NCBI GenBank assembly: GCA_965243565.1
Contig: OZ251571.1
Coordinates: 905,129 to 969,128, forward strand
DNA length: 64,000 nt
Origin: Gammaproteobacteria bacterium
GTDB lineage: Bacteria; Pseudomonadota; Gammaproteobacteria; Tethybacterales; Persebacteraceae
Direction: 5' to 3'
The notes below the pieces were generated by a model, which had not been told where the DNA came from, ran no database searches, and worked only from the letters and a program-made list of their open reading frames with translations. Shown in pieces: positions 5,510 through 39,899 of this stretch. Each line of letters opens with the position of its first letter. Position 1 is the stretch's first letter. Both the position numbers and the translations under genes were made by a program.

Positions 5510-5740
5510 ACCTTTAGCAAAAAATCACTCGCTGATGCCCTTGTTATCGGCATCAATCCCTTACCAAATTAGACGATGTTGCAATAAATTTTTCTGGTAG
5601 TTTTTGCATAGCGTTCTCATAGTCATGGACTTGCCCCGTTAACAGAAATACAACACACGCCACCCAAGTATGACAGTTATATCAACAAACATAAAATCAT
5701 TTGGTAGAATCGACAACCCATTCTATAAAACTAATTATTT

Positions 5741-6988
5741 ATGATAATACTATCTGATAAACAACCATTTGCACAAGGTGGCAACCGCTATGTATTTGTT
5801 CATCCACAAGACAGCAACAAATGCATTAAAATATTGCAACCACATCGCTTAAGCAAGTTTGTACGACCGTATTATAAGTTTCCTCGAAATTTACGTGGTC
5901 TAAATCATTATGATGATAATTTACGTGAGCAAAAAGGGTATCGTTATGTTGATTCAATACCACAACAACACGATGCATATAAACACATTCCACACTATTA
6001 TGGTTTAGTAAAAACCGATATTGGATACGGTAGTGTGTCTCAACTTATGCGTGATTATGATGGCAACATTAGTAAGACATTAAGGCAATACTTGCAAGGA
6101 TTTGTAGCAGGAACAGAAGATAAAACCTATATTGACCACGTTAACGAACTTAAATCATTTATACGAGAAATATCTTTTATATCAAAAAAATTAACACCAC
6201 AAAACATATTATCAGTGCGTATTAATGAACACCAACGACGGTTATATATAATAGAAGGGTTTGGTACACAAGAATGGATTCCCCTAGTACGTTATGTCCC
6301 TTTCTTGAAAAAAAGGAAAATAGAGCGTACGCTCCACGCCTTTGATAAAAGAATAGATGTTGAATTTTCTCTCATCAAAAACACAGTAATATTATCTGCC
6401 AATGATTATTTTGCAGCGGGCAGAACACGACGTTGTTATGTTTCTCCACAGAACCCCAGTCAATGTTTAAAAATCGTTATTCCCGGTAGCGACGGTCTAA
6501 AACTCAGGAACAAAAAATACCGCCGCCTTTTTCCTGCCTCGCGTTACAATCCAAACATGATAGAATGGCGTTGCTACCAAAAAGTTGAAAAAATGAATGA
6601 CGAAACACTCTGGCAGCATATTCCTCGTTGCTATAGTTTTGTTAATACTAATATTGGACAAGCACTGGTTTTAGAATTACTATGCCATGCCGATGGTAGC
6701 ATCTCCACACCTCTTATTCAAAGGATTCAACAGGGGGTGGACGAATCATTACTATCTGCCTATAATGAATTTCTTGATTTTATCCGTCGAAGTGGTTTTT
6801 ATACAACAGAAGTTAATAATATAAATTGCGTTCGCCTACCAGATGGTAGTGAACGCCTCTATTTTGTTGAATGTAGATACCGTCGCCCTGGGTTAACTTT
6901 CATTCCCGCTATTCGCCGCCGCCGTTTAGAGAGAATAATACAAACACGCATTTACCCCGCTTTTAATAAATATGCCAAGCAAAAATAA
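5741..6988 (+). CDS. Tandem-duplicated YrbL-family (PhoP regulatory network, kinase-like fold) protein
   Basis: Two consecutive YrbL-like modules. Module 1: SDKQPFAQGGNRYVFVHPQDSNKCIKI. Module 2: AAGRTRRCYVSPQNPSQCLKIV. Both match the E. coli YrbL N-terminus (SEQSPLGTGRHRKCYAHPEDAQRCIKIV). Confidence 0.7.
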   Translation: MIILSDKQPFAQGGNRYVFVHPQDSNKCIKILQPHRLSKFVRPYYKFPRNLRGLNHYDDNLREQKGYRYVDSIPQQHDAYKHIPHYYGLVKTDIGYGSVSQLMRDYDGNISKTLRQYLQGFVAGTEDKTYIDHVNELKSFIREISFISKKLTPQNILSVRINEHQRRLYIIEGFGTQEWIPLVRYVPFLKKRKIERTLHAFDKRIDVEFSLIKNTVILSANDYFAAGRTRRCYVSPQNPSQCLKIVIPGSDGLKLRNKKYRRLFPASRYNPNMIEWRCYQKVEKMNDETLWQHIPRCYSFVNTNIGQALVLELLCHADGSISTPLIQRIQQGVDESLLSAYNEFLDFIRRSGFYTTEVNNINCVRLPDGSERLYFVECRYRRPGLTFIPAIRRRRLERIIQTRIYPAFNKYAKQK

Positions 6989-7038
6989 CATTACTTTTAG
7001 ATTATTTAGAAAGCGTTATCCGTCGCTATGCTTTTGAC

Positions 7039-8781
7039 ATGAATAATAAATTATTATTCCATGAATTTTGGCGGTTGTTAGCCCCCTATCGGCATATTTT
7101 TTATGGTTCTGTCGTTTGCATGGTAGTTGTTGGAATTAGCGAACCATTGCTACCATTACTATTGGGCGAGTTATTAGACAGTAGCCAAGTACCAGCCTCT
7201 TCCGCCGTCCCCCCTAGCCAATGGTTGCCATGGGCATTTTTAGTCATTATTATTGTACGCAGTATATTTGGCTTTGGGCGTAGTTATCTTGGCGGTTGGC
7301 TAGAAGTAACCATACAAAAAGATCTACGACAACAAGCAGGATATAACGTATTACGCAGAGCTCCTCAAAAATTAATGACCAGTAAGAGCGGTGAAATTAC
7401 ATCACATATTGTATTTTTAACGGGCGGATTGATTAAATCATTCATTAAAATCATTACCGCAGTTGTACAAGACAGCGTAAAACTAATCGGTTATATCGCA
7501 TTACTATTTTATTTACACTGGCAATTAGCGAGTATTGTAATTGTCTTTATAATGCCCATATTCATAGTGACTCGCTATATCAACCGACGAATAAAGAAAA
7601 GATCAAAAGGAATATTAGAAAAGACGATTATGTCTGTCTCTGGTGTTAACCAATTAGTTAACATTTGGAAAATAATTAAATTATATGGCGGACAAGAAAT
7701 AGAAAAAAAACATTTAGAAAAAAAATTCTCTCATATTCGTAACACAATGCTACGCCGTGTTTTAGCCAAATCAGCACTATTGCCACTAAACCAAATTTTA
7801 TTCGCCCTACCGTTTACTTATATTATTTATTATGTCATCGGCGAACTAGAACGGGATACAATCACCGCCGGCAGTGTTGCCGCTTTTATCTCCACTATGC
7901 TACTTATTAATGTACCGATACGCAGTATCATCAGTTCTATTGCTACTTGGGTTGAAATGACTGTAACAGCGGATTCTGTATTTAATTTTATAAATCACCC
8001 ATTAGAAAAAGATGATGGTAGTAAAACACTAGACAAAATAGACGGGCAACTTTCTTTTAATCAAGTATCATTTTCCTACCGTAACGATACAACAGCATTA
8101 GATAACATCACCCTCACCATAAAAGCTGGCGAAACTATTGCATTAGTTGGGCGCTCTGGCTCTGGTAAAACTACTCTTGTCAATTTATTACCCCGTTTTT
8201 TATCCCCTGATAGTGGTAGCATTACGCTAGACAATGTAAATATTGTTGACTTGAAACTACAATCACTACGCCAGCATATAGATATTGTCACACAAGAACC
8301 CTTGTTATTTGAGGACACAATGGTTAATAATATTACCTATCCTCAATCAATGAATCATGACAGCGCAAAAGTAGAAGCCGCGTTAAAAAATGCTGTTGTT
8401 GATTTTATTGACACATTGCCGGATAAATTAGATACCATTATCGGTGAAAATGGTGCTACTTTGTCGGGTGGTCAACGCCAACGGTTAATGTTAGCCCGAG
8501 CGTTTTATCGTGATGCCCCTATTATTATTTTAGACGAAGCGACATCGGCACTAGACAGCGATACCGAAGGCAAAATAAAAACTGCAATGCAACGACTACT
8601 TAAAGGACGCACTGCCATTATTATTGCACACCGCTTTACTACTATAGATTTTTCCGACCGCGTGGCAGTGATAGATAAAGGAAAGTTAATTGCCATTGGC
8701 ACCGTGCAAGAACTACTAAAAACCTGCCCATTATTTGCAGAACTCTACGAGGCACAACGCTTAGAAGATGCAGCATCATGA
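7039..8781 (+). CDS. ABC transporter, fused permease/ATPase (MsbA-like lipid A/polysaccharide exporter)
   Basis: N-terminal 6-TM domain; Walker A GRSGSGKTT, ABC signature LSGGQRQR, Walker B ILDEATSALD. Confidence 0.85.
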   Translation: MNNKLLFHEFWRLLAPYRHIFYGSVVCMVVVGISEPLLPLLLGELLDSSQVPASSAVPPSQWLPWAFLVIIIVRSIFGFGRSYLGGWLEVTIQKDLRQQAGYNVLRRAPQKLMTSKSGEITSHIVFLTGGLIKSFIKIITAVVQDSVKLIGYIALLFYLHWQLASIVIVFIMPIFIVTRYINRRIKKRSKGILEKTIMSVSGVNQLVNIWKIIKLYGGQEIEKKHLEKKFSHIRNTMLRRVLAKSALLPLNQILFALPFTYIIYYVIGELERDTITAGSVAAFISTMLLINVPIRSIISSIATWVEMTVTADSVFNFINHPLEKDDGSKTLDKIDGQLSFNQVSFSYRNDTTALDNITLTIKAGETIALVGRSGSGKTTLVNLLPRFLSPDSGSITLDNVNIVDLKLQSLRQHIDIVTQEPLLFEDTMVNNITYPQSMNHDSAKVEAALKNAVVDFIDTLPDKLDTIIGENGATLSGGQRQRLMLARAFYRDAPIIILDEATSALDSDTEGKIKTAMQRLLKGRTAIIIAHRFTTIDFSDRVAVIDKGKLIAIGTVQELLKTCPLFAELYEAQRLEDAAS

Positions 8782-8896: not shown

Positions 8897-9940
8897 GTGA
8901 AAATACTACATGTCGCTAATTTTTCTTGGTTTAACGCCAAACACAAGCGTGCCGATAACATGGCACGTTACTACGCCCCCGATCGTAAAATTAGTAATGG
9001 ACTAATCCGCAACGGGTATAACGTATGGGATTTTAGTTATCGTGATACCGCACGATATCTTTCCCCATTAGGCATGGGTAAAAAGCTCGGTGCCCAAAAA
9101 ATGAACCAGTACTTAATAAATCAGGCACGCTACTACAAACCCGATTTATTATTATTAGGACACTGCGAATTATTAACACCTACAACATTAGCAACATTGC
9201 GCGACATGCTACCAAATTGTAAAATAGCACAATGGTGGGTGGATTGGTTCACTGATAATTCCATACGGCATCTAAACAAAAAATTACCTTATTTAGATGC
9301 CTTTTACGCCACCACTGCCCCCTCTTATTATCAAAACCTAATCGCCCCTTCCTCCTCTACTTCGGACGAAGCATCAACAGCGTTATATTATCTACCCAAC
9401 ATTACCGATTCTTCTGTAGAAACCAAGCAAGCATACAACGCCCCAACTCATCAATATGATGTTTTATTTATCGGTACCGATGCCGCAGAACGCGCCCATT
9501 TATTACAACAAATAAAAAAAATACCTAATATTAATTGCGGATTTTTTGGTTTTGATGGACAACCAAAACTAACAGGTAGCGATTTTATTACCGCCTTTGG
9601 TAACAGTAAAATGGGGTTAAATTTAAGCCGTGCTACCGACATCCCCCTATACTCATCAGATCGCTTGGCACAACTTACGGGCAACGGTTGTTTAACCCTC
9701 ACCCCCAGAATTCCGCAAATGACAACGCTTTTTAATGAAGAAGAAGTAGTGTATTACGATAGCAATGAGCAATTAATAGAAATTATAAAAAAATACAGCA
9801 AAGATAACGACAAATGGCGAGAGATAGCAAAAGCAGGCTGGCAACGCTCCCACAGTAGTTATAACGAACGCCGAGTAACGCAGTTTATGGTAGAAGCCGC
9901 TAATAAAGAAAAATTTAGCGAAAAATATGAATGGATTTAA
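8897..9940 (+). CDS. Putative glycosyltransferase (CgeB-like / GT1-like C-terminal domain)
   Basis: 347-aa ORF in a polysaccharide cluster. Weak family-level resemblance to CgeB/DUF3880-type glycosyltransferases; identity not secure. Confidence 0.45.
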   Translation: MKILHVANFSWFNAKHKRADNMARYYAPDRKISNGLIRNGYNVWDFSYRDTARYLSPLGMGKKLGAQKMNQYLINQARYYKPDLLLLGHCELLTPTTLATLRDMLPNCKIAQWWVDWFTDNSIRHLNKKLPYLDAFYATTAPSYYQNLIAPSSSTSDEASTALYYLPNITDSSVETKQAYNAPTHQYDVLFIGTDAAERAHLLQQIKKIPNINCGFFGFDGQPKLTGSDFITAFGNSKMGLNLSRATDIPLYSSDRLAQLTGNGCLTLTPRIPQMTTLFNEEEVVYYDSNEQLIEIIKKYSKDNDKWREIAKAGWQRSHSSYNERRVTQFMVEAANKEKFSEKYEWI

Positions 9941-10078
9941 TATATTTTTTAAAGATATATATATTAATAAGTAATTGAATATATGTATCTTTAATTGAAT
10001 ATGATTTATAAATTAATAATAAAATTTAACTAAAAATATTATTTTGTTTTACATTCCATAGAGTATAATTTCACCATT

Positions 10079-11098
10079 GTGGAAATGAAATATAAAGACA
10101 CACATCCGTGGCTAGACTTTACCCTTAATTTAAAGAAAATTCCGCCACATATTTGGTTTGATCTTGGGGAATGCGTTAGCAAATGCGACCACCTACAACG
10201 CACCGCTATGTCAGATGAGTTACGCAAAAATATATACAACACCTTTTTAACAAAAGGTGCAACCGCCACTACCGCCATAGAAGGCAACACACTCGGCGAG
10301 GAATTTGTAAGAAAAATAATAGACGATGAAAAACCACAAGTACAGGAATCCTACCAATATCTTGCTCACGAAGTACACAATGTAATCGCCCTGTTTGATG
10401 ACATTTTTAAAAAAGGCAAAATGGGGCATTGCCTCCTTTTTTATCGCCTGATATATTAAATAGTTTTCAAGCAAAAATCTTGAGCAATATACCTATTGAG
10501 GGTAACATCGGTAAAGTGCGACAACGCAATGTTGTTGTAGGCAACTATCGTGGTGCACCACCAGAAGACTGCACCTACTTATTACAGCATTTATGCGACT
10601 GGTTAAATAAAGATGAGGTGTTTTCCTATCTACAAAATACTTACGGCAAAAAAACAGCTGGTATTATTCGTGCTATATTAGTCCATTTTATACATTGCGT
10701 GGATTCATCCCTATGATGATGGCAACGGGCGAACCGCACGCATGGCAGAATTTTATTGTCTAGTAACGGCGGGCATCTCTGCCGCCGCCGCCCATTTATT
10801 AAGTAACCACTGTAATACATTACGCGATCAATACTATAAAGAACTTAACGTCGCCAGCCAAAATAAAAGCCCGATAAATTTTATCAACTTTATGGTTAAA
10901 GGTTTTCGAGATGGCTTGCGCGAGCAATTAAAATCAGTTTATGAAGAGCACAAGCGATTAGTATGGCATGATGTTACCGAGCAAAAAATAACAGGTTCTG
11001 TACCCACACGGCAACGACGCATCGAATTAGCGCGATTACTGGGCAATACTACTAATCAGCGTCTCAAATTAAACCGCCAAAGAATTACTTGCCAATAG
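10079..11098 (+). pseudogene. Fic/Doc-family (AMPylase-type) gene disrupted by two frameshifts
   Basis: Three consecutive ORFs in frames 2,1,2. The canonical Fic motif IHPYDDGNGRTAR (HPFx[DE]GNGR) is encoded just upstream of the third ORF's ATG in its frame. The N-terminal inhibitory-type motif TAIEGN is present. Shifts sit at an A6/T6 run (~10409-10442) and a T4 run (~10690). Confidence 0.7.
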
Positions 11099-11330: not shown

Positions 11331-12206
11331 TTATAATTTTTTACCTTCACTAACGACTTGCCAGCCGTTTTGACAATAATAGCGTACAGCATCATCGCGT
11401 ATATTTTTATGGTCGGCACTTTTGTAGGTTGCCGCCGCACCACCACCAGCAATCTTGCCAAATTGAGGATCACAACTCCATAATGTCATATCGTCTGCGG
11501 GGTGTGGTGGTACGTACGTTTTAACACCACCGTGTTTTAATGCCATGCAACTAAAATGTATGTCTTCGCCGTTGTCCCACGAAAAAGGTTCTTCACGCCA
11601 CATATAACTAAAATGCCGTTTATCTGAAAACCAAGCATGTCCGACTAAATCCACTGTTTCAACAGTATTGCTGTGCTTTCCATTCCAACCAACTTTTTCT
11701 TTTGCCGAGTACCCACCGCTAACGGGTAATAGTACACCGCTACCTCCTAATATTCCGTCATGTCCTGTTTCTATTGTTTTTAAACAATTTTCAAACCATT
11801 TGGGTTGTGGCAGAATATCATCATCAAATAATGCGATGTATTTTGTTTGTACTAAATTTGCCAATGCAAACCGTCCAAAAAATTTCCAATTAAAATTAGA
11901 GACAATGACACGGTCGGCAATATCAGAAAAATCAGGAATCGGTGCCCCGCTTTCATTACACCATAACCATATTTGTGCGGGCGGATACGTTTGTGCCCGT
12001 AATGCTTCTATTTGCTGTGCGACGTACCCGGGGCGTCTATAGACGGTTAATATGACGGTGATGTCTTGATTGTCCTTTGTGGGTGCTGGTATTACCTCTG
12101 CTGTTTTATTAAACACCACGCCCTGCTTTTGCCCGGCTAATCGCCGCTGCCGCTCGCCCCATCGCATAGCCAATTTTTTTAATAAAGGTGGTTTTTTCTT
12201 TTTCAT
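11331..12206 (-). CDS. Putative glycosyltransferase (DxD-type)
   Basis: 291-aa ORF with a LFDDD motif, located between the Fic remnant and wecB; family uncertain. Confidence 0.45.
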   Translation of the reverse strand: MKKKKPPLLKKLAMRWGERQRRLAGQKQGVVFNKTAEVIPAPTKDNQDITVILTVYRRPGYVAQQIEALRAQTYPPAQIWLWCNESGAPIPDFSDIADRVIVSNFNWKFFGRFALANLVQTKYIALFDDDILPQPKWFENCLKTIETGHDGILGGSGVLLPVSGGYSAKEKVGWNGKHSNTVETVDLVGHAWFSDKRHFSYMWREEPFSWDNGEDIHFSCMALKHGGVKTYVPPHPADDMTLWSCDPQFGKIAGGGAAATYKSADHKNIRDDAVRYYCQNGWQVVSEGKKL

Positions 12207-13348
12207 TGTGCTAAGTAGTCGGCAATATACTCAGCTGCGTGTCCATCACCAAAGGGATTTTTTGCAGCTGCCATAGTATTATAAAGGGTGGTATCAGTTA
12301 GCACACAATTAGTGGCATTAATAATACCTTCGGTTGTTGTTCCTACCAACTGTGCGGCTCCGCATTCTACAACCTCAGGGCGTTCGGTAACGCTACGCAT
12401 AATTAATACCGGTTTGTTTAATGTGGGAGCCTCTTCTTGTATGCCGCCGCTATCGGTTAATATTAAATGACAATGACTCATAAGATAGACAAAGGCGGCA
12501 TAGTCTAAAGGTGGCAATAAATAAATATTATTAATATCTGCTAGCCTATTGTGTACTGTGTCCTTTACTTGTGGATTAAGATGGACGGCATAAACAATGT
12601 CAATGTGGGGGTGTTTTTGGGCAATCGTTTTTAATGCACTACAAATATTTTGCATTCCTTCGCCAAAACTCTCACGCCGATGCCCTGTAACAAGTATAAA
12701 AGGTCTATCATTACTAATACGATAGCCTGCTGCATTGTAACCTGCATTGGCAACGGTATGTTGTACGGTGGCGTTAATGTTGGCATTATTGATGATTTTG
12801 TTTTGCGTATATAACAATGCATCTAATACGGTGTTACCAACGATATGAATACTACCATCGGCTTTTTCTGCTTTTAATCGGGTTTCATTTTTTTGCGTAA
12901 CGGCAAAATGAAGAGTAGCCAGTTTGCTAATCAATAATCGGTTTGTTTCTTCGGGCCACGGGGCACGACGGTTATCACTACGTAAGCCTGCTTCTACATG
13001 GGCGACAGGTATGTCGGCATAAAAACCCGCTAATGCACCAGCGGTAGCAGTGGCGGTATCTCCTTGTACAACAACAGTATCGGGGCGTTGATGGCGAATA
13101 ATATCATTAGCACCAGCGAGAACGGCAGCAACAACATCGCCTGTATGCTGATTTTGTTTCATTATCTGCAGGTCTGTATCGGGTACTATATCAAACCATT
13201 GCAGTGCTTGCTGTAACATAGTGCCGTGTTGAGAGGTGGCGCATACCGTTACTTTAAATTCGGTTTGGCGTGCGCGTAATGCGAATATCAACGGGGCTAA
13301 TTTAATGGCTTCTGGTCTTGTGCCGATGAATATTAATATATTTTTCAC
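12203..13348 (-). CDS. wecB: UDP-N-acetylglucosamine 2-epimerase (non-hydrolysing)
   Basis: 381 aa; N-terminus MKNILIFIGTRPEAIKLAPLI and overall collinearity with WecB/MnaA. Confidence 0.9.
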   Translation of the reverse strand: MKNILIFIGTRPEAIKLAPLIFALRARQTEFKVTVCATSQHGTMLQQALQWFDIVPDTDLQIMKQNQHTGDVVAAVLAGANDIIRHQRPDTVVVQGDTATATAGALAGFYADIPVAHVEAGLRSDNRRAPWPEETNRLLISKLATLHFAVTQKNETRLKAEKADGSIHIVGNTVLDALLYTQNKIINNANINATVQHTVANAGYNAAGYRISNDRPFILVTGHRRESFGEGMQNICSALKTIAQKHPHIDIVYAVHLNPQVKDTVHNRLADINNIYLLPPLDYAAFVYLMSHCHLILTDSGGIQEEAPTLNKPVLIMRSVTERPEVVECGAAQLVGTTTEGIINATNCVLTDTTLYNTMAAAKNPFGDGHAAEYIADYLAQ

Positions 13349-14031
13349 AGTGATATTTAGATTTAGATTTTGGTTCGGATTGTAGTTAAACGCTATTATC
13401 CGCTTATTATCCGCTATTTCCCCTTATGCCTACTGTACTCATTACCCACATCATTCACATTTCCACAGCGTTTATCTGGTAAAAATTCATCTGGCATTAT
13501 AAAACAAATTTTAACCGACTTTAACTTTTTTAGTTAGAGCCTAACTCTTGCAATGAATCATAATCTTAAAAACTGGCATGAATATTTCCAAACAGATGCG
13601 AATTGTAGAAGGATTATAGTATCCAATAAGCAGGAAAATAGTAAAAATAGAGTTTTTAGATTTTACGGAGGGAATAATTGAAATGAATGTGATGAATTAT
13701 GAATTATGCAAAGATTTCAATATATGTATATGTGTGAGTCATATTTTTGCACCTATAGATTTTTACCGCCATAGGCAGACTTGCATCGGCAAGAGGGCTA
13801 GGACTGATTAATGGTGGTTATGGCGATTAAAACCGTCGCACCAATTTCCTCTAATTATGATGACTTGGTAATTTCTTATTCTACCAAATTTACCAACATT
13901 GAGGTGGATTATGCAAAGGTCTAATACAGTGCCTAGCCACATAGTGCAATTATTATAGTGCTTATTTCATTAATTATTTGTTTTTAGCATAAAATATAAT
14001 TATTATAACTTTTTTGTTATAATGCGTTTCT

Positions 14032-15504
14032 GTGCAATACTTTCCATTCTTTCTAAATATCCACACGAAACTGGTTTTACTGGTTGGCGGTGGCGTGGTG
14101 GCACAACGTAAAGCCGACTTGCTACAAAAAGCGGGCTGCCACCTGCGTCTTGTTGCCCCGACTGTCCGTAGCGATTTGGAGGCATTATTACAGCATAATG
14201 GCACTGTCTCTAAACGCCCGTATCAACCAGATGATATTACTGGTTGTACGCTGGTGGTGTGCGCTACAAATGATGAAGCGATTAATGCACGCGTTTCTGC
14301 CGATTGCCGCCAGCGTGGCGTGCCGGTAAATGTGGTGGACTGCCCTGCTCTGTCTGATTTTATTTTTCCGGCACTGATTGACCGCTCACCGCTCACTGTT
14401 GCTGTTTCTAGTGCTGGTGCTTCGCCGGTGTTGGCGCGACGGGTGCGCGAAAAAATTGAATCTTCATTGCCAATGGCAACCGGTGCACTAGCGGTGTTTT
14501 GCGAAGAACACCGCCAAACGGTTAAAGACGCACTGCCGCCGCAGAAGCGTCGCCTGTTTTGGGAGGATGTACTGGATAGCGAAATTGCTGAAAATATATT
14601 AGCCGGTAACAGTGCCGATGCCAAGACGATGCTACTGCAACGTTTACAGCAGTTTGGTACTGACAGCGATAAAATCGGTCAGGTTTATCTGATTGGTGCT
14701 GGTCCCGGTGCAGCGGATTTACTTACTTTTCGTGCACTGCGTTTACTACAACAGGCTGATGTGGTGGTGCATGACCGTTTGGTTTCTACCGAAGTGCTGG
14801 CACTGGCGCGACGCGATGCCGAGAAAATTTTTGTCGGTAAATGCCGCAACCAACAGCTGATGAGTCAGGAAGAAATTAATCAGTTACTCATTAATCTGGC
14901 ACGTAAAAATCTGCGCGTGGCACGCCTAAAAGGTGGCGACCCGTTTATCTTTGGGCGTGGTGGCGAAGAATTACAGGCATTACGTGCTGCCAACATCCCG
15001 ACACAAATTGTACCCGGCATTACCGCCGCTAGTGGTTGCGCTGCGAGCGTGGAGATGCCGCTTACCTATCGCCATCTTGCGCGTAGCGTGCGTTTTGTTA
15101 CTGTTTATGAGCAAGATAAACAAGATGCTCATTTTTGGCAGAAACTGGCGAATGAACAGGACACGACACAGGTGTTTTATATGGCGGGGGCGACCATGGC
15201 GTTTGTTTGTGAACGCCTTATTGCCGCTGGGAGCAAACCGCAAACGCCGGCGGTGTTAATATGTGGCGGTACCACCACAGCACAGCAGCATTTTAGCGCA
15301 ACGCTAGAAACGCTACCCGCAATGGCATCATCAAAATGGTTTTCGCCGGCATTGCTGGTGGTGGGTGAAGTCGCTGCCCTTGCCCGTAAAAGTTACGATG
15401 CCATCGCTACCGCTTCTACCTCGAATGCTTCTATTGAGCATTTATTTATGAATTTACAACATGGAGAATCTCATGCTATCAACCAACCAATGGGAATCTA
15501 TTAA
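14032..15504 (+). CDS. cysG: Siroheme synthase (precorrin-2 dehydrogenase/ferrochelatase + uroporphyrinogen-III C-methyltransferase)
   Basis: N-terminal Rossmann VLLVGGGVVAQRKADLL and C-terminal methyltransferase motifs GAGPGAADLLT and GGDPFIFGRGGEE. The exact start is uncertain. Confidence 0.9.
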   Translation: MQYFPFFLNIHTKLVLLVGGGVVAQRKADLLQKAGCHLRLVAPTVRSDLEALLQHNGTVSKRPYQPDDITGCTLVVCATNDEAINARVSADCRQRGVPVNVVDCPALSDFIFPALIDRSPLTVAVSSAGASPVLARRVREKIESSLPMATGALAVFCEEHRQTVKDALPPQKRRLFWEDVLDSEIAENILAGNSADAKTMLLQRLQQFGTDSDKIGQVYLIGAGPGAADLLTFRALRLLQQADVVVHDRLVSTEVLALARRDAEKIFVGKCRNQQLMSQEEINQLLINLARKNLRVARLKGGDPFIFGRGGEELQALRAANIPTQIVPGITAASGCAASVEMPLTYRHLARSVRFVTVYEQDKQDAHFWQKLANEQDTTQVFYMAGATMAFVCERLIAAGSKPQTPAVLICGGTTTAQQHFSATLETLPAMASSKWFSPALLVVGEVAALARKSYDAIATASTSNASIEHLFMNLQHGESHAINQPMGIY

Positions 15505-17269
15505 CTCGTTAGTAGGGGATCTTAATTCCGAACAACGGCTTTGGCTTTCTGGCTATCTTGTCGGGCTGGATAATACACCGCTCGCACTGCCACCTATCGT
15601 AACTGCTGCTACTGCTAACGAAGCAACAACTGCTACACCGATAACGATTGTTTATGGGTCGCAAGGCGGCAATGGCAAGCAAATCGCCACTGCAATGGCA
15701 CAGCTACTTACCAATGTCGCTGTTGATAACCGCGTGGTGTCGCTGGCAGATTATAAAACGGCGTGGTTAAAAAAAGAGCGTTTTCTGTTTATTGTTGTCA
15801 GCACGCATGGCGAAGGCGAACCGCCTGATGATACGAAAGTATTTTATGATTTTATTTTTAGTAGTCGCGCCCCGGCACTGGCGAAACTAAAATATGCGAC
15901 ACTGGCACTGGGCGACAGCAGTTACGAGTTTTTTTGCAAAATCGGGCAGGATATTCACGAACGGTTAGAGCAACTGGGGGCGCAGGCATTGCAGTCGGTG
16001 GTGGAGTGCGATACCGATTACGAACAATCTGCGACAAAATGGCAACAAAACATCACCGACATGATGAAGCAAGAAGAGCCAAAACACAATGGTAGCAATG
16101 GTAGCAATGGTGTACTGCTACTGCCGACAACCGCTAACACCATTACCCTACCCGTCGTCGCCATCGACAACACTCCAACACGGGCGCAACCTTTTACTGC
16201 GCCGATAATTGAGCATATTATGCTTACCACACCACCACGCCGTACGCTACATATAGAGCTGGCACTAGAAGACGCAAACATAGATTATCGCCCCGGCGAT
16301 GCCATTGGTATTTTTCCACAAAACCCGCCCGCCACTGCCGACAAGGTAGCAACGACACTAGGATTAACGGCACAGCAAACACTTACCATTGACGAAGAAA
16401 CTGCTAATGTTAGTGAGTGGATGATTAAACGGTTAGACATTAGCCGCCCGACTGCTCATGCGCTAAATCGCTATCAGAAAATTATCAACAGCACTAAACT
16501 GGGCAAGCTGCTTGATGATAAAAAAGCACTTGGTAAGTATATTAATGGACGCGATTATGGCGATGTTTTTTGCGATTTTCCGCCGCTACCTGAACAGCAA
16601 AGTCAGGCACTTTCTTGCCTGCGGCGGCTGGCACCACGTTTGTATTCGCTGGCATCTTCGCGCGCGCTACGCGACGATGAGGCGCATTTACTGGTTGCCG
16701 TCAGTGACTATAACGGTCATGATACGGCAATACGCAACGGGGTATGCTCGCAGTATCTGGCAACGCAACAGGCAGGAGACACGGTAGATATTTATTTACA
16801 GCGTAATGATAATTTTCGCCTACCGACAGACGGCAATACGCCGATTATCATGATTGGACCCGGCACTGGTATCGCTCCATTTCGCGCTTTTATGGAAGAG
16901 CGTGAAGCCGCTGGCGATGCTGGTGCTAACTGGCTATTTTTTGGCAACCGCCACCGCCGTGATGAATTTTATTATCAAACCGAATGGCAGGGGTATGGTA
17001 AAAATGGTTTGCTTACACGGTTAGATGTCGCGTTTTCACGCGATGGTACGCAAAAAATATACGTGCAAGATAGACTGCAACAGCACGGTGGCGATATTTG
17101 GCAATGGTTGCAAGACGATGCACATATCTATGTCTGCGGCGATACCAACATGGCATCCGATGTACATGAACGGCTATCGGCGATTATCGGCGAACATCAC
17201 GGTGGCGACAGCAATACTTATTTACAGCAAATGCAAACTGACGGACGCTACCAACGCGATATATATTAA
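15461..17269 (+). CDS. cysJ: Sulfite reductase [NADPH] flavoprotein alpha subunit
   Basis: Flavodoxin-like N-terminus, FAD/NADPH oxidoreductase C-terminus (RLYSLASS, GPGTGIAPFRAF). Confidence 0.9.
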   Translation: MENLMLSTNQWESINSLVGDLNSEQRLWLSGYLVGLDNTPLALPPIVTAATANEATTATPITIVYGSQGGNGKQIATAMAQLLTNVAVDNRVVSLADYKTAWLKKERFLFIVVSTHGEGEPPDDTKVFYDFIFSSRAPALAKLKYATLALGDSSYEFFCKIGQDIHERLEQLGAQALQSVVECDTDYEQSATKWQQNITDMMKQEEPKHNGSNGSNGVLLLPTTANTITLPVVAIDNTPTRAQPFTAPIIEHIMLTTPPRRTLHIELALEDANIDYRPGDAIGIFPQNPPATADKVATTLGLTAQQTLTIDEETANVSEWMIKRLDISRPTAHALNRYQKIINSTKLGKLLDDKKALGKYINGRDYGDVFCDFPPLPEQQSQALSCLRRLAPRLYSLASSRALRDDEAHLLVAVSDYNGHDTAIRNGVCSQYLATQQAGDTVDIYLQRNDNFRLPTDGNTPIIMIGPGTGIAPFRAFMEEREAAGDAGANWLFFGNRHRRDEFYYQTEWQGYGKNGLLTRLDVAFSRDGTQKIYVQDRLQQHGGDIWQWLQDDAHIYVCGDTNMASDVHERLSAIIGEHHGGDSNTYLQQMQTDGRYQRDIY

Positions 17270-17288
17270 TGGCAAGCAATGGCAAACA

Positions 17289-18968
17289 ATGACAACTGAT
17301 AACAGTAAAACACCGCCACTCTCGGCAGTGGAAATTATTAAGAACAACAGCGATTATCTGCGCGGTAGTATTTGTAGCGGATTAGCCGAAGAGACCAGCG
17401 GCGCAATATTTGAAGACGACACAGTATTGGTAAAATTTCATGGCATATACCAACAAGATGACCGTGACCAGCGCGATGAACGGGCGCGGCGAAAACTGGA
17501 ACCAAACTATTCATTTATGCTACGCTTGCGTGTACCCGGCGGCTTGCTAAACGCCGAACAATGGCTTGCTGTAGATGAAGCAGCAACCACGCTCACCGAA
17601 GCCGGCAGTTTGCGGCTCACCACACGCCAAACATTGCAGTTTCACGGCATCCCCAAAGAAAACCTACGCCCATTAGTAAAAAAATGCTACCAACAACTGC
17701 TGGATTCCATTGCCGCCTGCGGTGATGTTAACCGCAATGTCATGTGTTCTCCACATCCTGACATCTCGCCGTTGCACCGTCAAGCACATGAAGTTGCTAC
17801 CGCCATCAGTGAAGCACTACTACCGACAACCCGTGCTTATTTTGAAATTTGGTTAGGCGAAGAACGGCTTGCCGACTCCACAGCAGACACAAACACCAAT
17901 GAAACGACAGACCCACTGTATGGCAAACATTATTTACCGCGAAAATTTAAAATCGGCATTGCCGTGCCACCGTCAAATGATATTGATGTTTATTCGCAAG
18001 ACATTGGTTTTATCGCCATAGCAGAAAACGGAGAATTACAGGGTTTTAATGTACTTGCTGGCGGCGGCTTAGCCACCACGCACAGCGATGAACGCACTTA
18101 TCCGCGCTTAGGCAGCGAAATCGGCTTTTGCACAGTGGCGCAAGCGGTAGAGGTTGCTTGGCACATCGCCGCTTGGCAACGCGATAATGGAGACCGTAGC
18201 GACCGCAAGCAAGCACGGCTAAAATACACAATAGATCGACGTGGTGTGGATGTTTTTGTGCAAGAATTACAGCAACGGCTAGGGTATTGTTTGCCGCCAC
18301 CACGCACGGTATCGTTAACATACCGCAGTGATTTATTAGGATGGCAGCAACGAACAGATGGGCTGTGGGACATGGGATTGTTTATTGAAAACGGCAGAAT
18401 TACCGCCGACTCACCGCTACAAAAAGCATTACAACAGATTGCGAAAAAAAACATCTGCCAATTTATGATGACGCCAAATCAAAACCTGATGTTAATCGGG
18501 CTAAACAATAGCGGCAGAAAAAAAGTACAAACGGCATTGAAAAATATATCCGATATTACCCCATCTTCTGCCCTGCGCGAAAACTCAATGGCGTGTGTGT
18601 CATTTCCAACCTGTCCGCTGGCAATGGCAGAAGCCGAACGTTATCTACCCTCATTAATTACTTTGCTGGAACAGGAATTGGAAAAACATCATCTAACAAA
18701 AGAAGCGATTAGCATTCGCATGACCGGCTGCCCCAACGGTTGCGCCCGCCCGTATATAGCAGAAATCGGATTAGTCGGAAAATCGCCCGGGCATTATAAT
18801 TTATATCTCGGTGCCTCCGCCAATGGCGACCGCATAGGCAAATTAGTCGGCGAAGGATTGACGGAACAGCTAATATTAGAAAAAATCAATCCACTACTCG
18901 CCACCTACGCTAAAAATAAAAAATCAAATGAATCCTTCGGCGATTTCGTACTGGCAACACTAATATAA
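17289..18968 (+). CDS. cysI: Sulfite reductase hemoprotein beta subunit
   Basis: Start set at MTTDNSKTPP, in frame with the longer track ORF; siroheme/4Fe-4S Cys cluster CPNGCARP near the C-terminus. Confidence 0.9.
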   Translation: MTTDNSKTPPLSAVEIIKNNSDYLRGSICSGLAEETSGAIFEDDTVLVKFHGIYQQDDRDQRDERARRKLEPNYSFMLRLRVPGGLLNAEQWLAVDEAATTLTEAGSLRLTTRQTLQFHGIPKENLRPLVKKCYQQLLDSIAACGDVNRNVMCSPHPDISPLHRQAHEVATAISEALLPTTRAYFEIWLGEERLADSTADTNTNETTDPLYGKHYLPRKFKIGIAVPPSNDIDVYSQDIGFIAIAENGELQGFNVLAGGGLATTHSDERTYPRLGSEIGFCTVAQAVEVAWHIAAWQRDNGDRSDRKQARLKYTIDRRGVDVFVQELQQRLGYCLPPPRTVSLTYRSDLLGWQQRTDGLWDMGLFIENGRITADSPLQKALQQIAKKNICQFMMTPNQNLMLIGLNNSGRKKVQTALKNISDITPSSALRENSMACVSFPTCPLAMAEAERYLPSLITLLEQELEKHHLTKEAISIRMTGCPNGCARPYIAEIGLVGKSPGHYNLYLGASANGDRIGKLVGEGLTEQLILEKINPLLATYAKNKKSNESFGDFVLATLI

Positions 18969-19307
18969 CACCGTAGTAACAAGATTTTTTTCATAGAAGC
19001 AATTGTCCCTCGATAGTTCAGTTTGTAGTGCAAGTAACTGAAATTAAAAATTCAAACCTTTAGTTGTAAATGTGAATTATGCAAATATCTCAATCTAATT
19101 CACCCCGAACGAACTGAGCCATAGAAAATACGACAGTAGCCATCAACCCTATCAGTGTCAATCGCTGGTTTTATAGGGTATGTCCAACAACTACACGATA
19201 TTGACAACCCGTAGGGCAAAATATTGTTAGGTATGCTAGAGTAAAAGCATAAAAGTTTGCAAAGTGAGATTGCAAAGTGAGATTGCAAAAATCATGAGGG
19301 GAGAATT

Positions 19308-23034: not shown

Positions 23035-25662
23035 TTATTTTTGCTCGGTATTATTAAGATAGAGTTCGCGACATTCACCTGGGTTTAATTTTTCAGGTAA
23101 GTGAAAACTGCCAAACCGTACCCGAATCAAACGACTGATGCCTATATCATAATGCTCGAATATACGACGGACGATTCTATTTTTGCCTTCGTTTAATATT
23201 ATTCGATACCAAGAGTTTACGCCTTCGCCTTCAATTTCTAATTTAAAATGAGACGGGCGTATAAGGTCTTTTCCTTCTAAAACCAAGCCGTTTTCTAAAA
23301 TATCAGCGATACTACTTTCATCTAACGCTCTATCTGCACGAATGCGGTATTCTCTTTCATAGCCATTAGATGGATGTGAATATTGATGTACCCAATCGCC
23401 ATTGGTTGAAAATAATAGTAGCCCTTCTGTTGCAACATCCAAACGCCCAACGCTCATCCAACGTCCGTTGTCTAATGTGGGTAAGTCTTCAAAAACAGTA
23501 TCAATTCCGTCGCTTTCGACAATTTTTCCGACGGGCTTGTAATAAGCCAACCATCTGTCTGGAATGTCTTGCACTGTGATTACTTTATCGTTGACGAGAA
23601 CTTTATCGGTCGGTGTGACGCGTTGTCCTACCGTTGCGATTTCACCGTTGACTGTGACTACACCAGATTCTATGAGTGTTTCCATTTTTCGCCGTGAACC
23701 CAAACCGGCAGTGGCAAGCATTTTTTGCAATTTTTCATCATTGTTCTTAGGTGCATTATCTACGTGAGGTCCGTTATTTAAATTAACCCATTTGCTGATT
23801 GTTTTTTCTTGAGATGGTTTTTTATCTGATTGCTCTCTATTATCGGAAAAATGAGGTTTATCATTGTCGCCTCGATCTGGTCTATCACCTCCGTTGTCAG
23901 AAAAACGGGGCTGGGCTGGGCGATCTTCATAGGGGCGATTACCACCGCCACTGTCTTTATCTGAAAATTTTGGTTTATCACCATCGCCAACTGGTCTGCC
24001 ACCGCCTGATGGTCTATCTCCATATGATGGTCTATCTCCATATGATGGTCTGCCGCCGCCTGATGGTCTATCTCCATATGATGATCTGCCGCCGCCTGAT
24101 GGTCTATCTCCAAATGGTGGTCTGCCACCGCCTGATGGTCTATCTCCATAAGATGGTCTGCCGCCGCCTGATGGTCTATCTCCATAAGATGGTCTGCCGC
24201 CGCCTGATGGTCTATCTCCATATGATGGTCTGCCACCGCCTGATGGTCTATCTCCATATGATGGTCTGCCACCGCCTGATGGTCTATCTCCATAAGATGG
24301 TCTGCCACCGCCTGATGGTCTATCTCCATAAGATGGTCTGCCGCCGCCTGATGGTCTATCTCCACGAGATGGTCTGCCGCCGCCTGATGGTCTATCTCCA
24401 TATGATGGTCTGCCACCGCCTGATGGTCTATCTCCATAAGATGGTCTGCCTCCGCCTGATGGTCTATCTCCATATGATGGTCTGCCACCGCCTGATGGTC
24501 TATCTCCATAAGATGGTCTGCCACCGCCTGATGGTCTATCTCCATATGATGGTCTGCCACCGCCTGATGGTCTATCTCCATAAGATGGTCTGCCGCCGCC
24601 TGATGGTCTATCTCCATATGATGGTCTGCCGCCGCCTGATGGTCTATCTCCATATGATGGTCTGCCACCGCCTGATGGTCTATCTCCATATGATGGTCTG
24701 CCGCCGCCTGATGGTCTATCTCCATAAGATGGTCTGCCGCCGCCTGATGGTCTATCTCCATATGATGGTCTGCCACCGCCTGATGGTCTATCTCCATAAG
24801 ATGGTCTGCCGCCGCCTGATGGTCTATCTCCATATGATGGTCTGCCTCCGCCTGATGGTCTATCTCCATATAATGGTCTGCCGCCGCCTGATGGTCTATC
24901 TCCATATGATGGTCTGCCTCCGCCTGATGGTCTATCTCCATATGATGGTCTGCCACCGCCTGATGGTCTATCTCCATAAGATGGTCTGCCTCCGCCTGAT
25001 GGTCTGCCACCGCCTGATGGTCTATCTCCATAAGATGGTCTGCCGCCGCCTGATGGTCTATCTCCATATGATGGTCTGCCGCCGCCTGATGGTCTATCTC
25101 CATGAGATGGTCTGCCACCACCTGATGGTCTATCTCCATGAGATGGTCTGCCACCGCCTGATGGTCTATCTCCATAAGATGGTCTGCCACCGCCTGATGG
25201 TCTATCTCCATAAGATGGTCTGCCGCCGCCTGATGGTCTATCTCCATATGATGGTCTGCCACCGCCTGATGGTCTATCTCCATAAGATGGTCTGCCGCCG
25301 CCTGATGGTCTATCTCCATGAGATGGTCTGCCACCGCCTGATGGTCTATCTCCATAAGATGGTCTGCCGCCGCCTGATGGTCTATCTCCATAAGATGGTC
25401 TGCCACCGCCTGATGGTCTATCTCCATATGATGGTCTGCCACCGCCTGATGGTCTATCTCCATATGATGGTCTGCCACCACCTGATGGTCTATCTCCAAA
25501 TGGTGGTCTGCCGAATCTTGGTCTGTCGCCTGATGAGGCTTTGTCAAAGTCGCTGCGCGGTCTATCGCTTGTTTTGTTGTGTCGTGAGGAATCGTTAGAT
25601 GTATTTTTTACGTCGGCAGAATTGGTTGATTGAGATTTTGTCTCGTCTTTTTGTGGTGTCAT
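23035..25662 (-). CDS. rluB: 23S rRNA pseudouridine synthase RluB with a ~640-aa N-terminal low-complexity (SYGDRPSGGGRP)n extension
   Basis: C-terminal 233 aa are a canonical S4 domain + RsuA/RluB catalytic domain (EKLQKMLATAGLGSRRKMETLIESG...GRLDVATEGLLLF). Upstream, in the same frame, ~42 twelve-residue repeats. Conserved scpA-scpB-rluB synteny, 55-bp gap to scpB. Confidence 0.8.
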   Translation of the reverse strand: MTPQKDETKSQSTNSADVKNTSNDSSRHNKTSDRPRSDFDKASSGDRPRFGRPPFGDRPSGGGRPSYGDRPSGGGRPSYGDRPSGGGRPSYGDRPSGGGRPSYGDRPSGGGRPSHGDRPSGGGRPSYGDRPSGGGRPSYGDRPSGGGRPSYGDRPSGGGRPSYGDRPSGGGRPSHGDRPSGGGRPSHGDRPSGGGRPSYGDRPSGGGRPSYGDRPSGGGRPSGGGRPSYGDRPSGGGRPSYGDRPSGGGRPSYGDRPSGGGRPLYGDRPSGGGRPSYGDRPSGGGRPSYGDRPSGGGRPSYGDRPSGGGRPSYGDRPSGGGRPSYGDRPSGGGRPSYGDRPSGGGRPSYGDRPSGGGRPSYGDRPSGGGRPSYGDRPSGGGRPSYGDRPSGGGRPSYGDRPSGGGRPSYGDRPSGGGRPSYGDRPSGGGRPSRGDRPSGGGRPSYGDRPSGGGRPSYGDRPSGGGRPSYGDRPSGGGRPSYGDRPSGGGRPSYGDRPSGGGRPSYGDRPSGGGRPPFGDRPSGGGRSSYGDRPSGGGRPSYGDRPSYGDRPSGGGRPVGDGDKPKFSDKDSGGGNRPYEDRPAQPRFSDNGGDRPDRGDNDKPHFSDNREQSDKKPSQEKTISKWVNLNNGPHVDNAPKNNDEKLQKMLATAGLGSRRKMETLIESGVVTVNGEIATVGQRVTPTDKVLVNDKVITVQDIPDRWLAYYKPVGKIVESDGIDTVFEDLPTLDNGRWMSVGRLDVATEGLLLFSTNGDWVHQYSHPSNGYEREYRIRADRALDESSIADILENGLVLEGKDLIRPSHFKLEIEGEGVNSWYRIILNEGKNRIVRRIFEHYDIGISRLIRVRFGSFHLPEKLNPGECRELYLNNTEQK
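23992..25512. repeat. Tandem array of ~42 copies of a 36-bp unit (GGTCTGCCACCGCCTGATGGTCTATCTCCATATGAT) inside the rluB 5' region
   Basis: Direct visual periodicity of 36 bp across ~1.5 kb; one 18-bp half-unit variant. Substitutions are mostly at positions synonymous in the RluB frame. Confidence 0.95.
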
Positions 25663-34764: not shown

Positions 34765-34840
34765 TGGTGCCCCAGAGACGATTTGAACGTCCGACCTTGC
34801 CCTTAGGAGGGGCCTGCTCTATCCACTGAGCTACCGAGGC
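34765..34840 (-). tRNA. tRNA-Arg (anticodon CCU)
   Basis: 76-nt cloverleaf folded by hand: acceptor GCCTCGG/CTGGGGC (two G-U pairs), D-arm GCTC/GAGC, anticodon loop CTCCTAA, T-arm GGACG-TTCAAAT-CGTCT, CCA end encoded. Confidence 0.8.
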
Positions 34841-34845
34841 AGTCG

Positions 34846-36564
34846 TCAATTATTAATGGTATCCTGTAAAAAAGAAAGCACGCCGTCAATAGGTATCAAT
34901 TCTGTCCCTTCTTTAAAGCGGTTTTTATACTCAACCTGACCTTCTTTTAAGCCACGGTCACCAATCACAATGCGGTGTGGAATACCGATTAAATCCAAAT
35001 CCGAAAACATAACACCTGGGCGTAAATCTCTATCATCCAATAAAACGTCAATATTAGCCGTTTTACATTGTTCGTAAAGATTGGTAGCGGCTTGTCTTAC
35101 TGCTTCGGAACGCCCCCATGAAATCGGCGCGATAACAACACAAAACGGTGCAATCGCATCAGGAAACATCATGCCATTATCATCATAAGCTTGCTCAATT
35201 GCGGCGGCGACAATACGCGTAACGCCAATACCGTAACAACCCATTAAAATATTCACATACTCATCAGCAGCGGACTTAATCACGGCATTCATCGCAGTAG
35301 AATATTTATCACCGAGCTGAAAAATATGCCCCACTTCAATACCACGAACACCTTGTAAAACACCTTTGCCACAAGGTGATTCATCACCAATTTCGGCATT
35401 GCGTAAATCGGCAAATTCGGGCTCTGGACAATCTCGTCCAAAATTCACCCCTGTAAAGTGATAATCATCCTCATTCGCACCACAAACAAAATTAGCAGTA
35501 TTAATCAACGCATTATCAGCAATCACAGGCAACGACATATTAACCGGTCCTAATGAACCAAAACCAGCCCCAATAAGTGCTTTTGCTGCCTCTAAATTCA
35601 ATAATTGGGCGTGCTTACCAATAGCGGGGTGATAACTCGCTTTAATAAGGTTTAATTGATGATTGCCTCGTAATAAAACAGCCGCAGCACCTGCCTCGCC
35701 CTGCACTATCATCGTTTTAATATTTTTATCACCCGACATTACTACGTCCATCTCCAAAAACTCACGCAATGCCGCAATCGTTTTTACTCCGGGAGTGTGT
35801 ATTTTTTGCAATGATTCAGTCGGATCAGCGCGATTTTTATTCGGTAAAACACACGCACAACGCTCAATATTAGAGGCAAAATCACTATCATCAGAATATA
35901 AAATTAACTCTTCGCCGGTATCGGCAAGCACCATAAACTCATGCGATAAATTACCGCCTATCGTGCCAGAATCTGCCTCAACCATGCGATAGTTAAGCCC
36001 AATTTTGTCAAAAATAGTACAATAAGCCTGACGCATAATCTCGTAGCTCTGTTCCATGCCTTTATCATCCACATCAAACGAATAAGCATCCTTCATAATA
36101 AACTCACGCGCACGCATTACCCCAAAACGCGGGCGGATTTCATCACGAAACTTGGTTTGAATTTGGTATAAATTAATCGGTAATTGACGGTAACTAGTAA
36201 CAATGTGACGCACTAAATCGGTAACAATCTCTTCATGTGTTGGTCCCATGCAAAAATCGCGTTTATGTCTATCAGAAAATCGCAACAATTCAGCACCGTA
36301 ATCTTTCCAGCGACCTGACTCATGCCATAAATCAGCCGGCTGCACAGAAGGCATAAAAACCTCTGCCGCCCCTGAAGCATCCATTTCTTTTCGTACAATA
36401 TCAGCGACTTTTCTGGCAACTCGCCAACCCAATGGCAACCATGTATAAATACCACTAGCCACACGGCGGATAAACCCGCCCCTCACCATTAATTGGTGAC
36501 TTATCGTTTCTGCATCCGCAGGCGACTCTTTACTAGTATGAATAAAAAATTGTCTTGCTAACAT
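34846..36564 (-). CDS. proS: Prolyl-tRNA synthetase
   Basis: 572 aa; class II motifs and the editing-domain insertion typical of bacterial ProS. Confidence 0.95.
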   Translation of the reverse strand: MLARQFFIHTSKESPADAETISHQLMVRGGFIRRVASGIYTWLPLGWRVARKVADIVRKEMDASGAAEVFMPSVQPADLWHESGRWKDYGAELLRFSDRHKRDFCMGPTHEEIVTDLVRHIVTSYRQLPINLYQIQTKFRDEIRPRFGVMRAREFIMKDAYSFDVDDKGMEQSYEIMRQAYCTIFDKIGLNYRMVEADSGTIGGNLSHEFMVLADTGEELILYSDDSDFASNIERCACVLPNKNRADPTESLQKIHTPGVKTIAALREFLEMDVVMSGDKNIKTMIVQGEAGAAAVLLRGNHQLNLIKASYHPAIGKHAQLLNLEAAKALIGAGFGSLGPVNMSLPVIADNALINTANFVCGANEDDYHFTGVNFGRDCPEPEFADLRNAEIGDESPCGKGVLQGVRGIEVGHIFQLGDKYSTAMNAVIKSAADEYVNILMGCYGIGVTRIVAAAIEQAYDDNGMMFPDAIAPFCVVIAPISWGRSEAVRQAATNLYEQCKTANIDVLLDDRDLRPGVMFSDLDLIGIPHRIVIGDRGLKEGQVEYKNRFKEGTELIPIDGVLSFLQDTINN

Positions 36565-37982: not shown

Positions 37983-38119
37983 TCTGCAAAAGATAATTGT
38001 ATTAAGTAAACAACACCTTTCTTTTTGATACCTACTGCTTCTAATACTCTATAATATGCACATGAAAAACGCTAAAAAATTAACACAACTTGCGATAAAA
38101 CGGTTTTTAGAGGCATAAT

Positions 38120-39778: not shown

Positions 39779-39899
39779 CGCTGTAAACTAAAATCTAAAT
39801 TAGTAATTAACTGTTACATTATCTATTTTTTATAATAAAAAATAAATTACATGCTAGAATAGCATATCTAATTTATAACACTTACAAGGAGAGTTTATT

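Follow-up and report, generated by a model that had tools for sequence, protein, structure and literature searches.

Why are two kinase-like modules joined in a single protein directly in front of a putative lipid exporter gene, and what might such a protein do there? This question arises from a stretch of 64,000 nucleotides from a Gammaproteobacteria bacterium of the Persebacteraceae (contig OZ251571.1, positions 905,129 to 969,128 of the forward strand), which was analyzed as a whole and is called the window below; all positions follow its numbering. On the plus strand, an open reading frame (ORF) starting with ATG (5741..6988) codes for a 415-amino-acid protein that Pfam matches with 192 bits in two stretches to PF10707, the YrbL family of minimal kinase-fold proteins. 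An earlier inspection of the letters alone, here called the sequence-only reading, had described a tandem-duplicated YrbL-family protein upstream of an MsbA-like exporter in a surface-polysaccharide locus. Our analysis shows that the gene arose by fusion of two neighbouring paralogues that had long diverged. Tentatively, and with a chance that we put a little below even, we favour the interpretation that this real paralogue fusion acts as a heteromer in the ATP-dependent modification of a lipid-linked glycan before its export by an ATP-binding cassette (ABC) transporter.

Both halves were compared separately with PF10707 (YrbL-PhoP_reg, Pfam clan PKinase), whose gathering score is 31.5 bits. 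Amino acids 1-210, the N module (5741..6370), scored 134.7 bits and covered profile positions 1-183 of 185. Amino acids 211-415, which include the C module (amino acids 215-415; 6383..6985), scored 61.9 bits over positions 1-151. Both values exceed the gathering score, confirming two complete YrbL modules in one protein, and no other Pfam family matched the protein at E≤1. Alignment of one half with the other gave 33% identity over 171 residues (E=2e-23). A DNA-level repeat between the halves was not found, the only similarity being a 27-nt match of 78%; the gene is therefore not a mis-assembled duplication, in agreement with the earlier remark that the halves are divergent. The N-terminal signature, said to be kept in both halves, reads FAQGGNRYVFVHPQDSNKCIKI in the first and FAAGRTRRCYVSPQNPSQCLKI in the second, where a serine replaces the near-invariant histidine.

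An exhaustive HMMER search of 1.84 billion representative sequences retrieved 1010 relatives; word-indexed homologue searches had found only 2 with the protein as query and 9 with a 15-sequence profile. Nearly all relatives are single domains of 190-250 amino acids. This size also applies to most of the best 150 of the 1010, among which only four proteins have two domains, consistent with the previous statement that YrbL is normally a single domain of about 210 amino acids. The nearest kin of the N half are the single-domain proteins P0003, P0152, P0153 and P0002 (47-55% identity), defining an N-type lineage. The C half is closest to another single-domain set, P0004-P0009 (40-51% identity), and to genes of two metagenomic contigs, L005 and L002, which represent a C-type lineage. 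Either half resembles its own set far more than its partner half. L005 carries one N-type and two C-type genes in this order, joined by successive 4-nt overlaps and followed by an overlapping ABC exporter gene whose product is 45% identical to the window exporter. In L002, four YrbL-like reading frames form an array, the last of which is cut by the contig end. A further contig, L117, is syntenic with the window and contains decayed YrbL copies, a C-type copy and homologues of the exporter (51%), of WecB (54%) and of a family 2 glycosyltransferase (GT2; 47%), the wecB homologue adjoining that of the GT2 gene. Because the two halves are closer to different single-domain lineages, which occur as adjacent and overlapping genes elsewhere, the 415-amino-acid gene is a fusion of old paralogues, and the tandem duplication proposed by the sequence-only reading is not upheld.

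The fusion junction (6371..6385, plus strand) has the sequence CTC ATC AAA AAC ACA, coding for L I K N T. It matches the CTATGAAAAAT stop/start overlap between the N-type and C-type genes of L005 and is two changes apart from it. ATC stands in place of the ATG and the reading frame has moved by one base, with the loss of both stop and start. The C half lacks a start of its own, the next in-frame ATG, GTG or TTG being codon 273.

The two-module architecture is not unique to the window protein. Four other proteins of approximately 400-434 amino acids (P0020, P0023, P0037 and P0106) likewise contain two PF10707 modules and are 22-27% identical to the window protein over the full length. P0020 and P0106 are independent internal duplications, as their halves are mutual best matches (48% and 40% identical, respectively); unlike the window protein, they are not fusions of N-type and C-type lineages. 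The two-module YrbL architecture thus arose independently elsewhere. Upon clustering of about 15 billion proteins at 90%, the fused protein remained a singleton, as did the exporter and the PF13524 protein encoded downstream.

Structure models were calculated with AlphaFold2. Since a full-length MAFFT alignment placed all single-domain homologues on the N half, a separate model of the N module was calculated from 65 sequences; it reached a predicted local distance difference test score (pLDDT) of 95.2 and a predicted template modelling score (pTM) of 0.90. The full-length model was built from C-type and tandem sequences only; the C module had a pLDDT above 90 over most of amino acids 211-415, while the N half and the inter-domain geometry are unreliable in this model. 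A Foldseek comparison with the PDB gave 86 matches at E≤1e-3, and the 50 listed were all protein kinases or pseudokinases. On top were the minimal effector kinases OspG, NleH (NleH2) and HopBF1 (E 1.7e-5 to 1e-4, target-normalised template modelling score (TM) 0.54-0.64, identity 10-13%), followed by eukaryotic-type protein kinases. A sequence profile search of the PDB found no significant relative (best E 0.49). According to these models, each module is a minimal protein-kinase-like domain of about 200 residues. OspG, NleH1/2 and HopBF1 share with the window modules a fold of approximately 170-200 residues without the usual large C-lobe. They are secreted effectors that phosphorylate host proteins (PMC9758233); nothing suggests secretion of the window protein.

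Judged from the alignments, both modules keep the predicted ATP/Mg2+-binding residues of a kinase, namely the Gly-rich loop, the β3 Lys, the Asn of the catalytic loop and, in place of the DFG Asp, an acidic residue. In the N half, G13, K30, N155 and E172-G-F-G are kept, and K150 occupies the position of the HRD Asp. The C half keeps the glycine of the Gly-rich loop, K244, N360 and E377; its catalytic loop has a two-residue deletion and no Asp. It also departs from the family at the well-conserved positions H21 (S235), G88 (S299) and D93 (N304). The last exchange was rejected as a sign of inactivation, as Asn is frequent in this column (39 of 161). Of the catalytic Lys and Asp that the sequence-only reading wished to see in a structure prediction, the Lys is present in both halves, the HRD Asp in neither, and Glu takes the place of the DFG Asp. 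The supposed combination of an active kinase with a pseudokinase is not supported by this result, the two halves being alike in both respects. Among 174 aligned domains, every one has the β3 Lys (K30) and the catalytic-loop Asn (N155), and at the DFG position (172), 129 have D and 24 have E. An HRD-type Asp is found in 70 of about 150 aligned domains of the wider family and, together with an RD...N...DGxG pattern, in 53 of the 86 domains in genome loci. It is absent from about a third of the orthologue-like genes in lipopolysaccharide (LPS) loci and also from E. coli YrbL (MSLKPQN). Since this Asp is missing in both halves and present in only about half of the family, canonical phosphotransfer is not assured. 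These sequence patterns suggest that the family either has an atypical mechanism or contains many members that only bind nucleotide.

The window protein is not an orthologue of YrbL. Compared with the YrbL equivalog model NF007671 (cut-off 227 bits), the whole protein scored 162.8 bits, the N half 118.7 and the C half 49.8. The presumed promoter region of the gene comprises the 231 nt from the dctM stop to the ATG of the fused gene (5510..5740, plus strand). It contains no match to the PhoP box (T/G)GTTTA-N5-(T/G)GTTTA with up to two mismatches, and the window-wide count of such matches is at chance level. The best sigma-70-like match in front of the gene is located at 5670-5697 (10/12), and the number of promoter-like matches in the region equals the expectation from shuffled sequence. 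The protein is not associated with a PhoP box. YrbL itself has long been known as a PhoP-regulated gene of E. coli and Salmonella. It belongs to the same Pfam family as both halves and displays the same pattern of Gly-rich loop, Lys, Asn and acidic residue. In contrast to the window protein, to which it is about 30% identical, it consists of one module and is encoded next to npr and mtgA instead of exporter and glycosyltransferase genes.

The proposed relation to LPS kinases was retained in part. The kinase-like fold and, at the level of the family, the link to LPS stand, whereas membership in the 3-deoxy-D-manno-oct-2-ulosonic acid (Kdo)/WaaP family (PF06293) or the WaaY family (PF06176) was rejected, as neither matched at E≤1. 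An hhalign comparison of the YrbL alignment yielded probabilities of only 0.5% with E. coli WaaP and 6.4% with WaaY.

The link to LPS became apparent from gene order across bacteria. Genome and metagenome scans with N-type alignments, performed on collections that contain neither the window genome nor close kin, returned relatives of at most 38% identity. The scan of one genome per species yielded 80 loci (L007-L086; 30-38% identity) from Marinobacter, Microbulbifer, Marinobacterium, Desulfuromusa, Geopsychrobacteraceae, Verrucomicrobia, Moraxellaceae and others. Sufficient upstream sequence was available for 77 of them. In 67 of these 77, a gene for a homologue of the window's PF13524 protein (about 30% identity) ends at most 150 nt upstream of the YrbL gene on the same strand. 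The PF13524-YrbL pair, with a gap of about 35 nt, is tightly conserved in Gammaproteobacteria, Desulfuromonadales and Verrucomicrobia and is often accompanied by an ELM1-like PF06258 gene; no description of this gene pair was found in the literature. Within 8 kb of the YrbL gene, the 80 loci contain genes for ELM1-like PF06258 proteins (51 loci), WaaA (28), LpxL (20), family 25 glycosyltransferases (GT25; 20) and MsbA (19). The forward strand of Marinobacter nauticus illustrates this arrangement with lpxL, manC, an lpxM-like gene, PF06258, a family 4 glycosyltransferase gene (GT4), PF13524, YrbL, GT4 and GT25, while waaA is located on the opposite strand. YrbL domains are also fused to GT4 (P0071, P0122) and, in both orders, to GT25 (P0064, P0080). 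The PF10707 family is thus tied to glycosyltransferases and LPS-core loci by gene order as well as by gene fusion. YrbL-domain genes have also been drawn in lipooligosaccharide loci of Arcobacter butzleri (PMC6477937). In P0086, the YrbL domain appears, as judged by eye, to be followed by a short-chain dehydrogenase-like C-terminal region. The N-terminal extensions of P0013 and P0027 were considered as PF13524 domains and rejected for lack of similarity; that of P0027 looks like a spurious ORF.

The window itself shares elements of these loci in a different order. The ORF of the MsbA-like exporter, a half-transporter of 580 amino acids with transmembrane and nucleotide-binding domains (PF00664 and PF00005; 7039..8781, plus strand), begins 50 nt past the stop of the fused gene, in accordance with the placement immediately downstream that had been reported. 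Its best NCBIfam model is TIGR02203 (MsbA) with 499.7 bits, under the cut-off of 602, and NF008381 gave 413.9 bits against an equivalog cut-off of 867. The exporter thus misses both MsbA equivalog cut-offs, and it is 32% identical to E. coli MsbA. Exporters of other LPS-core loci share 36-49% identity with E. coli MsbA and 29-37% with the window exporter. The clade of the latter (42-57% identity) includes the exporters behind the YrbL arrays in L005 and L117, is found in glycan or LPS loci and has members labelled MsbA by their depositors. The window exporter may be the MsbA of this lineage or a dedicated paralogue.

Downstream of the exporter gene follows a gene for a PF13524 (Glyco_trans_1_2) glycosyltransferase-like protein (8897..9940, plus strand; 75.2 bits). 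The genes for a GT2 glycosyltransferase (PF00535; 11331..12206) and a WecB-type UDP-N-acetylglucosamine 2-epimerase (PF02350, 359 bits; 12203..13348) are located on the minus strand. Glycosyltransferases and wecB are thus near the exporter gene as stated by the sequence-only reading, but GT2 and wecB do not follow it on the same strand and lie behind a Fic pseudogene. On one side, the cluster borders on metG and the gene of a TRAP (tripartite ATP-independent periplasmic) transporter, and beyond its other end are cysG, cysJ and cysI; the window MetG is 47% identical to that of E. coli. A contig of Ca. Thioglobus carries an exporter homologue (43%) near a PF13524 protein that is 58% identical to the one of the window. 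The GT2 beside P0003 in locus L113 has no similarity to the window GT2. The exporter genes of L114 and L115 adjoin a PF06258 gene; their products, like the exporter of the Ca. Thioglobus contig, belong to the clade of the window exporter, although none of these loci has a YrbL gene beside it.

The Fic/DOC-family gene (10079-11098, plus strand) follows an AT-rich stretch (9940-10078) and separates the exporter and PF13524 genes from the GT2 and wecB genes. It is frameshifted and split into three reading frames. Two successive fragments match the Pfam Fic profile, at its positions 2-60 and 70-91, respectively, and the motif HPYDDGNGRTAR is found at about 10700-10740. The gene is probably a decayed insertion that split the gene cluster. 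Broken genes were also observed in L117 (ENA ERZ25068803; 1250-5572 and 10723-11845), which contains fragmentary YrbL copies, the exporter in two ORFs and a frameshifted wecB, with a SIR2-domain gene next to this cluster. They represent either real decay or indel errors of long reads.

How could such a protein work? From the ties of the family to glycosyltransferases and LPS-core loci across bacteria, we infer that the protein works at the cytoplasmic face of the inner membrane. An N-type/C-type heteromer is suggested by the occurrence of the two lineages as overlapping genes before the same exporter clade elsewhere, and the fusion most likely hard-wires such a complex. The fused protein would then be an enzyme complex of the cytoplasm that binds ATP. 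Its putative substrate is a lipid-linked glycan, the product of the PF13524, GT2 and WecB enzymes encoded nearby, possibly LPS core or a glycolipid containing N-acetylmannosamine, which would undergo an ATP-dependent modification, most likely phosphorylation. Flipping or export of the modified glycan by the ABC transporter encoded downstream would come next, in parallel to WaaP or KdkA before MsbA.

Lipid A-core is the substrate of WaaP and KdkA, which act at the cytoplasmic face before it is flipped by MsbA. Like the window protein, WaaP, WaaY and KdkA combine a protein-kinase-like fold with a site among LPS core genes, and by analogy they are the best model for how it may work. In contrast to the window protein, WaaP-type enzymes keep the catalytic Asp. 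The YrbL genes of LPS-core loci in Marinobacter nauticus, Microbulbifer and Desulfuromusa belong to the same family as the window protein, are likewise accompanied by a PF13524 homologue and often have MsbA-type exporters near. They differ from it as single domains, mostly with a canonical RD...N...DGxG pattern, that are encoded directly downstream of the PF13524 gene. In the window, an Asp-less fusion is placed upstream of the exporter and PF13524 comes after it. The msbA-lpxK operon, whose adjacency was seen in sequence, and WbdD, a kinase coupled to the Wzm/Wzt ABC exporter, offer further examples of a kinase gene beside, and functionally upstream of, an ABC exporter for lipid-linked glycans. 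LpxK is a P-loop kinase and WbdD a kinase-methyltransferase with a coiled coil; neither belongs to PF10707.

Several observations weigh against a glycan-modifying heteromer. Both halves are devoid of the canonical HRD-type catalytic base, and the catalytic loop of the C half is shortened. The closest structural matches are protein kinases and not sugar kinases, and the YrbL family has no specific relationship to WaaP or WaaY. The inter-domain arrangement is unreliable, since the full-length model reached a pTM of only 0.57 with an N half thinly covered by the alignment. No YrbL gene adjoins the related exporters of L114, L115 and L118, so that a coupling of YrbL and exporter is not obligatory, and GT2 and wecB are located on the opposite strand beyond the Fic pseudogene. 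Finally, a published biochemical function was not found in the literature for any member of the YrbL family. The strongest competing explanation, possible although we consider it unlikely, is that both modules are non-catalytic pseudokinases, which bind nucleotide or a glycolipid head group and serve the exporter or the PF13524 glycosyltransferase as scaffold, adaptor or gate. This would account for the missing catalytic-base Asp, the Glu at the DFG position and the two-residue deletion in the C half. The entire N-type and C-type clades share these changes and yet keep K, N and E, which suggests that binding and not chemistry is under constraint. Where three or four paralogues form a translationally coupled array, they resemble structural subunits, and CASK and the JH2 domain of JAK2 are among the fold matches. 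On the other hand, the Lys, the Asn and the acidic metal ligand are invariant in the family, as expected of an Mg-ATP enzyme, and the Asp is also missing in E. coli YrbL and in one third of the orthologues from core loci, which points to an atypical mechanism of the whole family and not to a functional loss of this clade. Improbable, in our view, is a protein kinase or signalling protein, either similar to OspG, NleH and HopBF1 or acting as a regulator in the PhoP network, for which the position among envelope genes would be incidental. The best structural matches, these three effectors and then eukaryotic-type protein kinases, agree with this idea, as does the founding YrbL member, which is known only as a PhoP-regulated gene. 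With TM values of about 0.5-0.6 and 10-18% identity, these matches speak for the fold only; no PhoP box precedes the window gene, and chance would hardly account for the fusions with GT4 and GT25 or for the pairing with PF13524, which 67 of 77 genomes of several phyla display.

Two other explanations deny that the gene is a fusion of distinct paralogues or that it is real. An artefact of sequencing or assembly, in which an indel error wrongly joined two adjacent genes, would be compatible with a junction exactly at the stop/start overlap of L005, with the one-base shift and with the singleton status of the fused protein. As this would need two independent differences, the frame shift and the exchange of ATG to ATC, a simple sequencing error is an unlikely source of the fusion. 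Even with the frame 'repaired', the C half would be left without a start codon before codon 273. Moreover, the neighbouring reading frames are intact and the source contig has a length of 1.68 Mb, and we regard an artefact as very improbable. A recent in-place tandem duplication of one YrbL gene has the least in its favour and is extremely unlikely. Two homologous modules in one ORF could be generated in this way, and P0020 and P0106 demonstrate that such duplications exist; the halves of the window protein, however, are 33% identical and each is far nearer to a different single-domain clade, the two clades being encoded by adjacent separate genes elsewhere.

The window protein is a new architecture of a known but uncharacterised family and in itself a lineage-specific curiosity. 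The main value of the fusion of paralogues lies in the family-level link to the LPS core and in the hint of a heteromeric complex beside an MsbA-like exporter. Gene order and fusions with LPS-core glycosyltransferases in many phyla predict an envelope-glycolipid role for the YrbL family. A new class of LPS-modifying enzymes lacking the canonical catalytic Asp, if this is what the family represents, would matter for outer-membrane biology and for resistance to antimicrobial peptides. A more far-reaching proposal, which we rate as doubtful, is that the N-type and C-type paralogues, both Asp-less, assemble into an ATP-binding hetero-oligomer, an accessory to the MsbA-like exporter by which a lipid-linked glycan is marked or gated for export, PF10707 as a whole being an unrecognised family that modifies LPS core or glycolipids by atypical catalysis. 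In that case the N-type/C-type accessory would be a previously undescribed kinase/pseudokinase module, the fusion in the window would be its 'Rosetta-stone' form, and E. coli YrbL would gain a testable function in PhoP-controlled envelope remodelling.

Other parts of the window displayed features of their own. Two adjacent genes for ankyrin-repeat proteins of 253 and 431 amino acids are located at 40653-42915 on the minus strand, and genes for ScpA and ScpB are also present. Along with the Fic pseudogene and a source contig of 1.68 Mb, these genes suggest a proteobacterium that has a small genome and is associated with a host. The region 36001-40000 has a GC content of 32-35%; a tRNA gene (34768-34840) and proS are situated slightly more than 1 kb away. 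Within the region are small ORFs (37545-37982 and 38347-38946) that no Pfam family matches, and it may be a small island. In the block of cysG, cysJ and cysI (14001-19000), coding for sirohaem synthase and sulfite reductase, the GC content is 44-49% compared to 37-40% in the flanks.

A 36-bp tandem repeat with approximately 42 copies of 94-95% identity extends from 24007 to 25512 within an ORF on the minus strand (23035-25662). The ORF codes for an 875-amino-acid protein with S4 and pseudouridine-synthase domains (RluB-like). The repeat encodes a 12-residue unit rich in Gly, Arg, Pro and Ser and forms part of an extension of about 640 residues that has no Pfam match and stands in front of the S4 domain. 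The repeat accounts for the local GC peak of 51% and the AT skew of -0.29, and also for long shadow ORFs on either strand.

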